From sequence record PZ402305.1: a DNA stretch of 64,000 bases, one strand, 5' to 3'. Shown here piece after piece: positions 14,090 through 62,613 of the stretch; within the stretch, counting starts at the first letter, position 1, and the number at the start of each line of letters is the position of its first letter. The translations under genes and the position numbers were made by a program. Under the pieces are notes generated by a model that made no database searches, had not been told where the DNA came from, and was given only the letters and a program-made list of their open reading frames with translations. The stretch comes from a phage.

Positions 14090-15979
14090 TGGCTGCTTAT
14101 AATTGGTATGAACTTGAAGCTGTTTGTCAGTTTTATGACTCAATAGTTCTGCGTGATCCAATCTGTCAAGAATTGAGTCGCCGTGCAAGTGCATTGGCAA
14201 TCCGTGTTAAAATAAACGGTTGGAACGCAGATTTGGAAAAAGAGTTGGAATTTCTCTTAGAAAACACGCGGGTCTTCCGCAAAGTGTTCCCTGAATGGTT
14301 TGAGATGGAAGAATGATCATGTGGATTGTGCGTCTTAAGTATGATGGCCCTAATCCTTGGGTGAGAACAGTTTGCGGATGTGATACTAAAGAGTCAGCAG
14401 ATAAAGCTGGAAGAATGATAAGTGCCTTTTATAATAGTAAACCTCTTTGTTTAGAAATGTCTGGTGTGGTTTGTATGAGCATGTTCGAATACTACTCTTA
14501 TGAGATCAAAGAACACCAAGGGGAATGGAAATAAATAGTTGACAGAAGGATCTGTCTTTGTCATAATCATCTCATCGAAACAAAGAGGAGAAAATCATGA
14601 AAAAGTTTATTTGCACCCGTTCCACTAACAGTGATATCCTTGTAGGTAAGGTTATCAAAGGAGAACTCTTCCATGCAAACGGTAAGAAATATATTTTGCT
14701 GAAAGATTCTTTCAACGGGGAATATCCGCGCTGCACTTTCTTCAATTACAACACTCCATTTGCTTTAGAAGGAGATGCTTGGGACTGGGCTGAACTCAAT
14801 CCTTGTTGTGAGGAAGAAGAATCTATGTTCTTGGGTTTAAACGTTTACCGTGTAGATTACACCATGTGCGGAGCGGAACATTCTGTTCGCGTAGAAGCCG
14901 AATCCAAACTACAAGCACCTTTCAAGGCGGGATTGACTTTGGGTCATTGTTTGGCAAACATTGAAGATGTTGTGATCCAAAGGGTTGTTTTAGAGAAAGA
15001 GGCTATTTGAGAGAAGACGGCACAATATTTAAATATAAAGATTAACCACAAAGGAGATAGATATGCAAGTTGAAGACCTGATCAAAATTTTGAATGAAGC
15101 CAAAGAGAAAGGTGCTATCAAAGACTGGAAACGTGAAACAAGTGAAGATCTATCTCACTGTTGCCGAGAATTTTACATCGAAGGTATTGCTGACGATCAT
15201 TATATTATCGAATGGTATATCAACTTAATGACTCTTAAGCACGGTTCGTTTGAGGTTTGGTTTGATGACATTGATGTAAATGGTTTTCATCCTGGCTATA
15301 AAATCGCTATGCAGTTATCTTATCGTAGAGAAGTTGTAGCACATTTAGGTTTACATAACTAAGGAGAAAAGAATGCAAGCAGTTGTTAACGAAGCTATTA
15401 TGAACTTATCCTTCTTGTTAGCTGGTTTAGGAGGTGTTCTCATAGGTTTGGCTCTTATCTGGTGTATTCGTCGATTAATCGGGTACCGACAAAAAGGTGT
15501 TTCATGTTTTGTATCTTACAATTTTACAACTGCTTACAGCAATGAAGTTGGATCTGGCAATGCTCAAGCATTTTTACCAACATATCCTCCTACGGTGGAA
15601 GATATTCGAAACTTGGAAGTAGAACTTATGGGACTAAGTGATAACTATACATCTCTAGTTATTCAAAATATTTTTCGACTAAAACAGGAGGCGTGAATGA
15701 AGGTACATTACCCTCATCCATTTGATCCTAAAAACAAAGCCGTAATTCTTCGTCAGTGGCAACGGGTTTGTCGTACTAAATGTCCAATCAATAGCCCACA
15801 CAATGTAGACAAGGACTATCTTGGGACATTTGTTGAATACACTTACATAGACAAAAACAAGCGTAAACAACATGTCGAGGAATACTGCTTAAGAGTAGAA
15901 TGGCTGTAAATAATAAATACCTTGACAAGTGTTTATTCGTTTTGTAAAGTGAGAATACAGCAATGGTTTAGGAGTGGTT

Positions 15980-47852: not shown

Positions 47853-48812
47853 TTAGATTCCAATGATAGTTGCTGCTCGTTTATCCTTGGATCTAGTGTT
47901 TGCTCTACTACGTGACAAACCGCCGCAAGATTCACAACGAATGATATCGAAAGAACTTACCGCAGTGTGGTATTGTTTACCAGTAACAACGTGAACGTGA
48001 TCACTACCACAACGAGAACAACGGACCTTCTCATCTGGGTAATAAGCGGATAAGTTAGGATGCTGTGGAATCCACGGAAGGATTTTCATATACAAATCAC
48101 GGAGTGAAACAACATCACCATCATTGTAAATCTGCATACGTTCAAAAGCATCACGATCACCTTCACAACATGCTTTCCATAAAGGGAACCCCTCGTTATC
48201 CAGTTTTTCACTTTCTGTTTCGAAATATGCTCCCATTTCTTTAAGGGAGTTGGAAGGAAGTGCAAATTGTTTCTTAGCTGCCTTCAATGTATCAACAACT
48301 ACATAATTAGAAGGAGGAGCCATATCGTGATATGCAAATCGTTGGTTAATGTATGCACGGTCAAACTTATATCCGTTGTGTGCCACAACTACATCTGCCT
48401 CGTTCAGAAGGTTCCAAAGATCTTGGCAAAGCTCCCAATCATCTGTATGATCAATATCAAAAAGAGGATAAGAAGACAAGTTCTTACCTTCCACTTCACC
48501 AGTATACAGGTCAGCAGAAGAGTAGGATAACAAATAACCTCTGCGAATTACCTGGTCTGGAGAAATGAAGGCTTTGAATCGACGGAAAGTATATGCAATC
48601 TCTGGTGCAGTTTCAACATCAATAATTTTAATAACTGGTTGTTTCTTTTTAACTGGCTCTTGTTTACTTGCACCGAAACGTGCAAGGAAATCATTTACTG
48701 TGCTTTTTCTTGTTGGACTACCTAAAACAATTGCTGCAATATTACGAGAAGACATACCCTCTGCACTCATACTAAGGATATCTGCTTTCTGCTCTTCTGT
48801 TAATCTGCTCAC
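47853..48812 (-). CDS. DEDD-family 3'-5' exonuclease with N-terminal HTH-like and C-terminal Cys cluster
   Basis: IIDVETAP (Exo I), VVAHNGYKFD (Exo II), YNDGDV (Exo III); CSRCG...CESCG. Confidence 0.7.
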   Translation of the reverse strand: MSRLTEEQKADILSMSAEGMSSRNIAAIVLGSPTRKSTVNDFLARFGASKQEPVKKKQPVIKIIDVETAPEIAYTFRRFKAFISPDQVIRRGYLLSYSSADLYTGEVEGKNLSSYPLFDIDHTDDWELCQDLWNLLNEADVVVAHNGYKFDRAYINQRFAYHDMAPPSNYVVVDTLKAAKKQFALPSNSLKEMGAYFETESEKLDNEGFPLWKACCEGDRDAFERMQIYNDGDVVSLRDLYMKILPWIPQHPNLSAYYPDEKVRCSRCGSDHVHVVTGKQYHTAVSSFDIIRCESCGGLSRSRANTRSKDKRAATIIGI

Positions 48813-49927
48813 TCTGCCTCCTGTTGTGAGATGTATGACTGAAGCATACTCTCAAATGTTGTATCGTCATTATCCCAGCGTTTCATGTATACCAACTGGA
48901 AAATTGTTTCTATCCATTCATCTGTTGTCATATGGACTTCTTCTCCATCCCAAGAAGTAAAATTAACACCATCTGGGAACCATGAGTAGTAAGTATCTTT
49001 AACTGTTTGGAAAAGTTCTGCTTGAGTTTTACAAGCTGAAAGAAGATTAAAACAAGTAATATCTCCGAACTTAATATCAAAATCTTGATAAGGTCGGATA
49101 CTATCTGTTTTATCTCCCATTAGCATCTGATATGCTAACCAGTAACTGCCCCAACCTTTAACTTCTTTCTTTTTACCTTTATCTACGATCCATATATCGC
49201 CAATAGACTCGTCAATAAGAATTATATCTGGATTTTTAAATACTCCATCCTCTTTGTAGAAATTAAAAAGGATACTAGGAGTATGTAAACTATCTTTATC
49301 TATAGATACTACGATATAAGAAAATTTACCCGTCCTTTTATAATCTTTATAACCTTGGAAACCATACTTCTCTAACTCATCATCAGCTTCTATTACAGTA
49401 ACAACATCACCATTGTGGAACTCCACAAGATAATCTTTGGTTTCTGAAAGCTGAAGTGGTTTGATATCTAATCGTTCAGATTTATATTCTACAGGCATTT
49501 TGAAGGCGTGTCTGAAAGTTTTTCCTACGCCAATAACTCCGCAATATTTTTCTAAACGTAGATGTTTTAGAATACCTAAGACTTTTGTTTTAGCTGCTTG
49601 GAAGGTGTGTCCGATATCTTCTGGCGGGTATTGCTTATCAATGATTTCGAACTCTTCCTTTGTGAAGGGACGTTTGTTTTTGGAGGCTCTTTCTGCATTT
49701 GTATCTCCTAGCCAACCTCCAATTTTAGTCTTGCTTTTACCCCAAAACTCTGTCTTATTTTTAAATTCCTTTTGAGCACCTGAAGGGATGTGCTTCGCAA
49801 TGATTGTTCTTTTCTCTAATGCAGACGCTGCTTGGAAAGCGATCTGATCATAATCAATTGCAGCTATTGTTTCTTCATTGACATATAAATGAAGATCTTC
49901 AGGTTTAATTAAAATATAACCGCTAAT
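48809..49927 (-). CDS. rnh: 5'-3' exonuclease / flap endonuclease (T4 RNase H-like); start codon non-canonical and uncertain
   Basis: EADDELEKYG, SIDKDSLH, GDKTDSIRPY; frame open 147 codons upstream of the first ATG (49498) with a T4 RNase H-like N-terminus (TIAAIDYDQIA). Confidence 0.7.
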   Translation of the reverse strand: MSGYILIKPEDLHLYVNEETIAAIDYDQIAFQAASALEKRTIIAKHIPSGAQKEFKNKTEFWGKSKTKIGGWLGDTNAERASKNKRPFTKEEFEIIDKQYPPEDIGHTFQAAKTKVLGILKHLRLEKYCGVIGVGKTFRHAFKMPVEYKSERLDIKPLQLSETKDYLVEFHNGDVVTVIEADDELEKYGFQGYKDYKRTGKFSYIVVSIDKDSLHTPSILFNFYKEDGVFKNPDIILIDESIGDIWIVDKGKKKEVKGWGSYWLAYQMLMGDKTDSIRPYQDFDIKFGDITCFNLLSACKTQAELFQTVKDTYYSWFPDGVNFTSWDGEEVHMTTDEWIETIFQLVYMKRWDNDDTTFESMLQSYISQQEAE

Positions 49928-49939
49928 ATTTCCCCCTAG

Positions 49940-50149
49940 TTATTCATCGTCATCCTCTGTTGAGAATGTTTTAGTATACGGACATTGACGACTTTTCGGG
50001 ATTGCTATAACTTCATCTTGGTTAGCGTTAGAATAGTAGCAATATTTTGTATTGCCATTAACTTCAGAATCAGACAAGATTAAAGTAATTTGACCTGCTG
50101 CTACTGTGAAACTAAAAGCTAAAAGAACGACTGTCAGAATCTTTTTCAT
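49940..50149 (-). CDS. small secreted protein (signal peptide)
   Basis: MKKILTVVLLAFSFTVAAGQ; TAGGAGG RBS; upstream terminator hairpin at about 50161-50188. Confidence 0.55.
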   Translation of the reverse strand: MKKILTVVLLAFSFTVAAGQITLILSDSEVNGNTKYCYYSNANQDEVIAIPKSRQCPYTKTFSTEDDDE

Positions 50150-50221
50150 AACGCCTCCTAAAAAGCCTACCTCATTAAGTAGGTAGGCATAATATCATAA
50201 CTAATCCCGCAAGTCAAGAAC

Positions 50222-51177
50222 TTATTTAAGGATTGTTGCTTTGGTTAAATCTTCCATCAGACCTCGAATCTCATTGAAGCACAGAAGGACTGAAGCTTCA
50301 ATACTGCCTTCTTCGTCTGCAAAATATTTCGGAAAACGTAGTTTAGAAAGTTTAAACTCTTTATCCACTACGAAATCTACAACACCGTCATATTCAAGAC
50401 CGATTGCAACAACATCTTTACCATCTTCTTTTAGTTCGACAGCTTTAGACTCGTATAGGGATTCTTTACTCCAAACAACAACGCCCTCGCTATCCTCCAT
50501 TTTGATATAATTTCCGAGAGTAATACGATCTGCTTCGTGATTCTCCAGCAATTCACCAAAACCTTTCACAATAGCTTCTTCATGCACACTAAAACCTACC
50601 GAAGGGAAAGTCCCCAGAACGGAACGGAGGAAAGAAGTAATCTCTTCTGCAACCTTTTTACTTCCATTAAGAACATAAAGAAGATTCGTAGTTTTATCCA
50701 AGACAACATAGTTAAAGAAATCTTCAGGTTCTGTTTCAGGCAATAGTGCAAATTCAATATCTTCCTTCATTGCTTTGACTACTTCTTTATCGACATAAAA
50801 CTCTTTACCTTCGCTCTCCATGTCCTGACGCATTTCTTTTCCTTCATTGCTTTGACTACTTCTTTATCGACATAAAACTCTTTACCTTCGCTCTCCATGT
50901 CCTGACGCATTTCTTCTAGCCGTTCATTCAGAATACGTTTAACTTTCTTTTTATCTACCTTCTTCACAGATTGACCTACATTAAGCAGTTCAAGATCTGA
51001 AAACTCTTTTACAAATTTAGAGTCATCTTCGAAACGAACAAGACCGATAGTGTGTGACTGGGAGCCTTCTGCTGTTACAAATTCCAGAGGAATATCTGTA
51101 ATGCTGTTAAGGGATGCTACAGAAGCATTGTCGCCAACAACCATAGGCAGAGCGGATTTAAAAGATTTTACAAACAT
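50222..51177 (-). pseudogene. gene split by a perfect 77-bp tandem duplication (track ORFs 50222..50833 and 50779..51177)
   Basis: Both ORFs encode MRQDMESEGKEFYVDKEVVKAMKE from copies 77 bp apart; removing one copy restores one frame of about 292 aa. Confidence 0.55.
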
Positions 51178-60574: not shown

Positions 60575-60646
60575 TGGCCCTGTAGCTCAATGGGAGAGCT
60601 GTCGGCTCATAACCGATAGGTAGCTGGATCGAAACCAGCCAGGGCC
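60575..60646 (+). tRNA. tRNA with CAT anticodon, tRNA-Ile2 (lysidine)-like
   Basis: Acceptor GGCCCTG/CAGGGCC, loop CTCATAA, encoded CCA; resembles bacterial tRNA-Ile2. Confidence 0.7.
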
Positions 60647-60651
60647 ACCAA

Positions 60652-62267: not shown

Positions 62268-62338
62268 ATGTTTCGTAGTTCAATGGTAGAACCCACGACT
62301 GATAATCGTGAGACACAAGTTCGATTCTTGTCGAAACA
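62268..62338 (+). tRNA. tRNA-Ile (GAT)
   Basis: Stem CACGA/TCGTG with loop CTGATAA; T-arm ACAAG-TTCGATT-CTTGT; CCA. Confidence 0.65.
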
Positions 62339-62419
62339 ACCAGTTTCCCGTTAGACTTACAGGATAAGAGTTCCACAGCTTATTGTGATGCTGGTTCGAA
62401 TCCAGCACGGGATACCTAA

Positions 62420-62495
62420 TAGCGGGATAGAGGAGTCTGGTCGTCCTCGCCAGTTTCATATGCTGGAGATCATTGGTTCAAATCCAATTCCCGCC
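62420..62495 (+). tRNA. tRNA-Met (CAT), initiator or elongator undetermined
   Basis: D-stem GAGG/CCTC, stem CCAGT/GCTGG with loop TTCATAT, T-arm ATTGG-TTCAAAT-CCAAT, 1:72 mismatch, CCA. Confidence 0.5.
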
Positions 62496-62613
62496 TCCAA
62501 ATATCGCTTGCCAGCGGTATCTTTGAAGACCTTGCCTGGTTCCTTCTAAGATGGAGGGGTGCGACTCCTTAACGCACAATTATAATAAAGCATTTCAAAT
62601 TAACAGTATTTAT

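Follow-up and report, generated by a model that had tools for sequence, protein, structure and literature searches.

How is a protein produced from a reading frame whose first 147 codons contain neither ATG, GTG nor TTG? The question is raised by a nuclease gene on the minus strand of a phage sequence, record PZ402305.1, of which a stretch of 64,000 nucleotides (nt), here called the window, was analyzed and to which all coordinates refer. Over 1551 bases the region is 100% identical to that of Escherichia phage phAPEC8 (JX561091; Stephanstirmvirinae, Phapecoctavirus); 64 more records match at 95–100%, and approximately 130 deposited records or genomes match the region at 71–100% identity. The frame opens at CTA 49939, right after a TAA (49942-49940), and continues for 376 codons to TGA 48811-48809, the first canonical start codon (ATG, GTG or TTG) being codon 148 (ATG 49498-49496). 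Given the frequency of such codons inside the other long open reading frames (ORFs) of the window (5.2%), around 7.7 would be expected in codons 1–147, where none was observed (simple binomial P ~4e-4), and the 147-codon start-less lead is the largest of any ORF in the window, with the next largest being 55 codons. An earlier note on this DNA had described the frame as open up to the TAA, which was recognized as the in-frame stop of a preceding small secreted-protein gene, with 147 upstream codons devoid of both stops and canonical starts, the motif TIAAIDYDQIA encoded upstream of Met 49498, and a GGGGGA run after the TAA followed by in-frame ATT codons. The sequence read-out confirmed the extent of the frame and the absence of a canonical codon before codon 148, and the motif and the run were both found, with the ATT codons located at 49927, 49915 and 49909.

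Comparison with related phages makes it highly probable that translation of the nuclease starts at the first of these, the near-cognate ATT 49927-49925, giving a protein of 372 amino acids (aa) that would be expected to carry methionine at its N-terminus, as part of the predicted peptide MSGYILIK. The features central to this assignment are the following.

48809–49927, minus strand: proposed gene for a FEN-type 5′–3′ exonuclease of 372 aa, from ATT 49927-49925 to TGA 48811-48809
49937-49932, minus strand: Shine-Dalgarno (SD) sequence AGGGGG, with full anti-SD pairing including one G·U wobble, 4 nt before the ATT
49927-49925, minus strand: ATT, the putative near-cognate initiation codon, assigned by comparison with relatives and the first near-cognate codon after the SD
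49847–49855, minus strand: GAT TAT GAT, encoding D25-Y-D27, the predicted first acidic active-site motif, identified in alignments and aligned to DGD of T7 gp6
49496–49498, minus strand: ATG annotated as the start in the Phapecoctavirus records examined, here internal Met144, without an SD

The proposed initiation site in the window and in relatives

The sequence following the TAA reads CTAGGGGGAAAT and then ATT AGC GGT, with AAAT between AGGGGG and ATT. The codon is a one-base neighbor of ATG at a functional SD spacing, and no canonical start is found between the upstream in-frame stop and the residues predicted to be essential for function. When all 62 full SD hexamers of the window were considered, 41 were found to precede an ATG or GTG opening an ORF within 3–10 nt, most commonly at a spacing of 4 nt (22/41). 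All of these 41 ordinary SD-served starts are ATG or GTG, and no full SD of the window other than AGGGGG-ATT leads into a long ORF via a near-cognate codon. The ribosome-binding site is ordinary for phAPEC8 except for its start codon. Another near-cognate candidate, an SD at 15429 combined with ATA, was rejected as it is located inside a normal ATG gene.

For the comparative analysis, 185 loci were collected from deposited phages, IMG/VR, metagenomes and Logan assemblies, and the invariant Asp was located in each. On a neighbor-joining tree, a Stephanstirmvirinae-like clade of 29 distinct proteins was delineated, with 50–100% identity to phAPEC8. The codon situated 23–25 before the invariant Asp is ATT in 13 of these, ATC in 11, ATA in four and CTG in one, with ATG, GTG or TTG found at the homologous start position in none of the 29 members. 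A complete SD (6/6) is present in 28 of the 29, and the SD-start spacing is 4 nt in 17 and 5 nt in 12. Most members (23/29) lack any canonical codon between the start site and the Asp motif, and those present in the other six have a poor SD and occupy non-homologous positions. Clustering of the 29 coding sequences at a proportion of synonymous differences (pS) <0.5 left 21 lineages, in effect independent of one another at synonymous sites, and every one of these is near-cognate. In four members (L016, L099, L100 and L102) an in-frame TAA immediately precedes the ATC, and the start can therefore not be further upstream in these. The start-less layout is common, without exception, to the Phapecoctavirus sequences read, to those of Justusliebigvirus (including phi92) and to those of metagenomic relatives, amounting to approximately 35 distinct start regions.

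Relatives with canonical starts have them at the same position. In L178 (47% identity) the sequence is AGGAGGA-TAG-TTG, with a canonical TTG precisely where the clade has its near-cognate codon, and in the sister clade, the Vequintavirinae, the homologous position is occupied by TTG in rV5-like, GTG in KB57-like and ATG in CR3-like phages. The SD spacing is the same in these relatives, and the Vequintavirinae N-termini (MGYP.., VGYP..) can be aligned with I-(S)GYILI; the start position in the clade is thus orthologous to canonical starts in its relatives. The proposal in the earlier note of initiation at a non-canonical ATT after a G-rich SD is strongly supported by this comparative evidence; of the two codons it had named, ATT or ATA, the latter is not applicable to phAPEC8, though it is the homologous start in some relatives. 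Near-cognate calls outside the clade (L138, L145, L153, L162 and L080) were discarded as artefacts of the selection rule, with an equally well-served ATG available in each.

Two further details of the site were noted. The G-run of the nuclease SD (49932-49936) comprises five G in phAPEC8, six in PNJ1809-36 and ETEC-TG, and seven in BI-EHEC (loci L179, L180 and L181), which is either a real polymorphism or a homopolymer sequencing error, and a change in the length of the run alters both the distance between SD and stop and the reading frame relative to the upstream ORF. The sole CTG-start relative, L018, has CTGA at its start (around 601), with an other-frame TGA overlapping in the manner of ATGA/GTGA junctions; the ORF that this TGA closes probably arose by chance.

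The upstream codons as part of the enzyme

The 147 upstream codons are real coding sequence of the nuclease. A tblastn search with the extended protein retrieved 1213 phage records, 901 of which cover at least 80% of the protein, and the N-terminal 147 residues alone match PHROG 107 ‘exonuclease’, the family matched by the window protein with an E-value of 1e-55. Between lineages, the N-terminal part shows a proportion of nonsynonymous differences (pN) of 0.06–0.35 and a pS of 0.7–0.85, with synonymous sites saturated (e.g. pN 0.058 and pS 0.74 for L017 vs L018); purifying selection on the upstream codons is strong. No stop or frameshift was seen in the 372 codons of the nuclease frame. In alignments of 13 and 49 sequences, D25 never varies and D27 is conserved to at least 90%; the alignment of 49 sequences also shows E180, D182, D183, D210, D212, D272 and D275 to be invariant.

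Comparison with the T7 gene 6 exonuclease using hhalign gave a probability of 94.9% (E 4e-8) with residues 11–290 aligned, pairing IAAIDYDQIAFQAASALE with ILVMDGDWLVFQAMSAAE of T7 gp6 as well as EADD with EGDD, IDKD with CDKD, and GDKTD with GDITD (window protein and T7 gp6, respectively). According to this alignment, the protein possesses the conserved acidic clusters of FEN enzymes, one of which lies on the first strand. An AlphaFold2 model of the 372 residues consists of a single domain with the N-terminal strands integrated (mean predicted local distance difference test score, pLDDT, 96.1; predicted template modelling score, pTM, 0.90). The significant Foldseek matches in the PDB were all FEN-type, namely T5 D15, E. 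coli ExoIX, a plastid exonuclease and the M. smegmatis Pol I 5′-nuclease (probability 0.97–1.0, E 7e-5 to 2e-3), so that a FEN fold is indicated by both the model and the fold search. Judged from the model, a product starting at Met 49498 would lose D25 and D27 together with four strands of the predicted fold. The suggestion in the earlier note that the upstream codons encode a plausible nuclease N-terminus thus holds, with approximately 900 homologous records, the D25 motif and the model with a pLDDT of 96 in its favor, and the protein is predicted to be a FEN-type 5′–3′ exonuclease.

Pfam scans of the full, N-terminal and C-terminal proteins gave no match to PF02739 or PF01367 even at E ≤1, and the window protein does not reach the Pfam gathering score for the FEN family; PF02739 is recorded for more distant homologs only (P0035, P0073-P0084). 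Sequence-profile searches of the PDB with the 13- and 49-sequence alignments likewise returned no FEN or T4 RNase H match but only noise, and the family placement therefore rests on the hhalign comparison to T7 gp6, the PHROGs and the fold search. The description of the enzyme as ‘T4 RNase H-like’ in the earlier note is appropriate at the superfamily level only; T4 RNase H is absent from the significant sequence and fold matches.

Alternative explanations and the possible role of a weak start

The ATG at 49498 is the first canonical start codon and is used in all Phapecoctavirus annotations examined; starting there would yield a 229-aa protein, with the upstream frame left untranslated or as a decaying remnant. 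This is very unlikely, as the 143 codons upstream of 49498 are conserved as protein while their synonymous sites are saturated, are homologous to the N-termini of around 900 phage exonucleases, and contribute four strands to the confidently predicted domain as well as the D25 motif, which aligns with T7 gp6. Moreover, there is no SD before 49498, and the first canonical codon in relatives is found at many different, non-homologous positions. Initiation at the downstream ATT 49915 or 49909 is unlikely as well: both codons are in frame, and ATH is kept at the 49915 position in many close relatives, but they are located 16 and 22 nt from the SD, compared to 3–10 nt for the window genes. The 49915 position is also not ATH in the L017, L018 and L106 lineages, and homologs with canonical starts begin at the 49927 position.

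A fusion of the nuclease to the upstream signal-peptide protein, by read-through of TAA 49942-49940 or by frameshifting, might be considered since the TAA is in frame with the nuclease in phAPEC8 and a database protein of 444 aa (P0005) looks like such a fusion. The DNA encoding P0005 (locus L174) however has a TAG at the junction that was read as Gln, making the protein a gene-caller artefact, and relatives differ in the frame offset (0, 1 or 2) between the upstream stop and the start of the nuclease, so that no conserved frame link to the upstream ORF was found. Furthermore, the G-run of 5, 6 or 7 G among Phapecoctavirus isolates shifts the frame relation while harming neither ORF, the upstream gene in L177 is an unrelated methyltransferase with its TAG inside TAGGAGGA, a second in-frame stop abuts the start in four loci, and a signal peptide on a DNA nuclease is functionally senseless. 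Read-through, ranked as less likely already in the earlier note, is now rejected on account of the variable frame offset, the G-run and L177, and either route to a fusion is scarcely credible. A sequencing or assembly error, or a gene that has become a pseudogene in this isolate, is given an equally negligible chance. The G-run near the start is a homopolymer prone to errors, and its length differs among records, but the same layout is seen in the approximately 35 distinct start regions, derived from isolates and independent metagenome assemblies and spanning 50–100% protein identity, while some 130 deposited genomes match the region and the 372 codons are intact under strong purifying selection. 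A base-call error is excluded because the exonuclease region is 100% identical to JX561091 and the start-less layout recurs in all these start regions. As a side note on P0005, the Logan caller apparently chose genetic code 15 for the short contig carrying it, and this wrong choice seems to have been prompted by the lack of a canonical start.

Three points count against initiation at ATT 49927: the start was placed by sequence comparison only, the in-frame ATT codons at 49915 and 49909 could also serve as starts, and ATT, ATC, ATA and one CTG would also be expected of an internal Ile or Leu codon under synonymous drift. The codon set alone is therefore not proof; a start codon is argued for by the stops that abut it, its SD spacing and the canonical starts at the orthologous position in relatives.

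If initiation takes place at ATT 49927, the AUU (49927-49925) would be read by the ordinary initiator fMet-tRNA with a third-position mismatch, with the full-strength SD AGGGGG at the usual 4-nt spacing positioning the 30S subunit or a just-terminated ribosome. In E. coli, AUA, AUC, AUU and CUG constitute a second tier of start codons, with 1–2% of the AUG level measured using GFP and 0.02–3% using NanoLuc (bioRxiv 10.1101/063800), and the four start codons of the clade are exactly this measured set. With so weak a codon, output would be expected not to exceed a few percent of the AUG level. By analogy with other AUU starts, output may also be IF3-sensitive; according to two reports, AUU-start expression depends on the level or fidelity of IF3 (PMC5499595, PMC9723500). 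Part of the initiation may come from ribosomes terminating at the preceding 69-aa ORF (termination-reinitiation), and reinitiation is known to need initiator tRNA and IF2 and to be lowered by excess IF3 (PMC2268962). In 28 of the 29 clade members, 8–18 nt separate the upstream stop from the start (-4 in L018), and we infer a contribution of translational coupling to the nuclease start. The weak start would most likely ensure that a nuclease that could do harm is made in smaller amounts than its co-transcribed neighbors, and it is reasonable to suppose that it is maintained for this purpose.

A more far-reaching idea is that the whole Stephanstirmvirinae-like clade actively maintains the near-cognate start as a translational rheostat instead of tolerating it as an oddity. 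Selection would then hold the nuclease gene to one of the four second-tier codons behind a maximal SD, with nuclease synthesis set by IF3 stringency and upstream termination. We regard this as possible but doubtful. The stop-to-start distance is equally short in the canonical-start sister clade, so that coupling appears ancestral and not an adaptation to the weak codon. In-frame canonical starts downstream of the weak start are modestly depleted, at 2.3% versus 4.3% in the sister clade, and a similar trend is seen in the rest of the gene. Should the rheostat exist, the dose or timing of the nuclease would be tied to the translational state of the infected cell, and the gene would represent a phage counterpart of infC-type control in which four near-cognate codons can be compared in native context.

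Two other mechanisms were considered. Gating by RNA structure around the stop, SD and start was dropped, being no better than in shuffles (z -0.33), and phage tRNAs were set aside as an explanation, since relatives also use AUA and CUG, which makes the ordinary initiator tRNA simpler. The window encodes a tRNA-Ile(GAT) (62269-62342) and two tRNA-Met(CAT) (60576-60650 and 62421-62499). The latter tRNA-Met(CAT), of 79 nt, has an initiator-like A1·C72 mismatch, lacks the three consecutive G:C anticodon-stem pairs of initiators and has an unusually large D-arm, and the one at 60576-60650 resembles tRNA-Ile2 types.

Neighboring genes, annotation and known systems

The surroundings of the nuclease gene contain the following additional features.

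49940–50149, minus strand: 69-aa ORF with a signal peptide, upstream of the nuclease, ending in TAA 49942-49940 (from the ORF list)
47853–48812, minus strand: downstream gene for a 3′–5′ exonuclease or ‘DNA polymerase exonuclease subunit’ (Pfam RNase_H_2 on homologs)
50217-50189, minus strand: predicted sigma-70-like promoter TTGACT-17-TATTAT from a consensus scan, near-consensus and with TG before TATTAT
50188-50165, minus strand: predicted terminator-like hairpin with a T-run, adjoining the promoter and upstream of the 69-aa ORF
49576–49698, minus strand: 40-aa coding sequence (CDS) phAPEC8_00121, in another frame inside the nuclease N-terminal region and overlapping the conserved frame, almost certainly spurious

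The 69-aa ORF, for which a signal peptide is annotated in the phi92 homolog, terminates with its TAA 12 nt ahead of the nuclease ATT, and the GTG start of the 3′–5′ exonuclease gene overlaps the nuclease stop as GTGA (48809-48812); with this overlap, the three genes form one tightly packed unit, and it suggests translational coupling along the block. In the Vequintavirinae loci L006 (CR3), L009 (KB57) and L010 (phiTE), an HNH endonuclease gene is found directly upstream of the homologous exonuclease, taking the position held by the small signal-peptide ORF in Stephanstirmvirinae. The hairpin at 50188-50165 carries a terminator annotation in phage ASO2A, and the promoter/hairpin pair (50165-50217) could represent a promoter overlapped by the terminator of the RdgC-like gene, or something akin to an attenuator. 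The minus-strand RdgC-like gene itself contains a perfect 77-nt tandem duplication in the window (50762-50915; 2.0 copies, 100% match), which splits the 292-aa gene into the overlapping ORFs 50222–50833 and 50779–51177, each encoding MRQDMESEGKEFYVDKEVVKAMKE. In the deposited phAPEC8 record the gene is intact with one copy of the 77-nt unit, and a few substitutions separate the window from that record around this gene.

The replication/recombination nuclease is annotated in truncated and presumably inactive form, without its first catalytic motif, in every Stephanstirmvirinae record examined, including phAPEC8 and phi92. The phi92 annotators remarked on their downstream GTG call, which falls after the IDYDQ motif, ‘No RBS identified; weak Prodigal statistics’, and phAPEC8_00121 is almost certainly a call that fills the apparent gap. 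Gene callers limited to ATG, GTG and TTG will keep spreading the truncated annotation. No report of this start was found in the literature searched on phAPEC8, phage ATT/AUU starts and phage ribosome profiling. Near-cognate initiation as such is already known, and the phage nuclease is an unusually well-supported, clade-wide new example of it. With 21 diverged lineages, a fixed SD and spacing, and a canonical-start sister clade as a built-in control, it offers an unusually clean comparative case, and the easily grown coliphages make it testable whether weak starts dose toxic nucleases or sense IF3 during infection.

As an enzyme, the closest characterized relative by profile comparison is the T7 gene 6 exonuclease, likewise a phage 5′–3′ exonuclease of the FEN superfamily, with which the DxD, E(A/G)DD, DKD and GDxTD motifs are shared. 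T7 gp6 differs in being 300 aa long and in lacking an insertion of approximately 50 residues (KRTIIAKH...GGWLGD) after the first helix; only around 200 columns align, at 26% identity, and T7 gene 6 carries an ordinary CDS annotation. The PIN-like/H3TH FEN fold is predicted to be shared with T5 D15, ExoIX, the Pol I 5′-nuclease and T4 RNase H (Foldseek probability ~1.0 to 5hp4, 3zdc and 6vde), whereas sequence identities to T5 D15, ExoIX and Pol I are only 10–15%, with TM-scores of 0.3–0.6.

With respect to the start codon, Streptomyces sigR resembles the phage nuclease in having a conserved non-canonical start as a translational control point of a dose-sensitive gene, but it uses a GTC codon in another organism, and the regulation by IF3, experimental for sigR, is only presumed for the phage nuclease (PMC5472188). 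In E. coli, infC and pcnB are the only confirmed cases of non-canonical starts (bioRxiv 10.1101/063800), both with a near-cognate AUU served by an SD, as in the phage gene. The infC AUU, like the ATT of the phAPEC8 nuclease, closely follows the stop of the preceding gene; it is found 3 nt after the thrS stop (UAA GGU AUU), and reinitiation and de novo initiation have roughly equal shares in its use (PMC3592434). In contrast to these host factors of translation and RNA metabolism, the phage gene encodes a nuclease with no autoregulatory loop evident, and while the start of infC and pcnB is fixed as AUU, the phage clade alternates between AUU, AUC, AUA and CUG.

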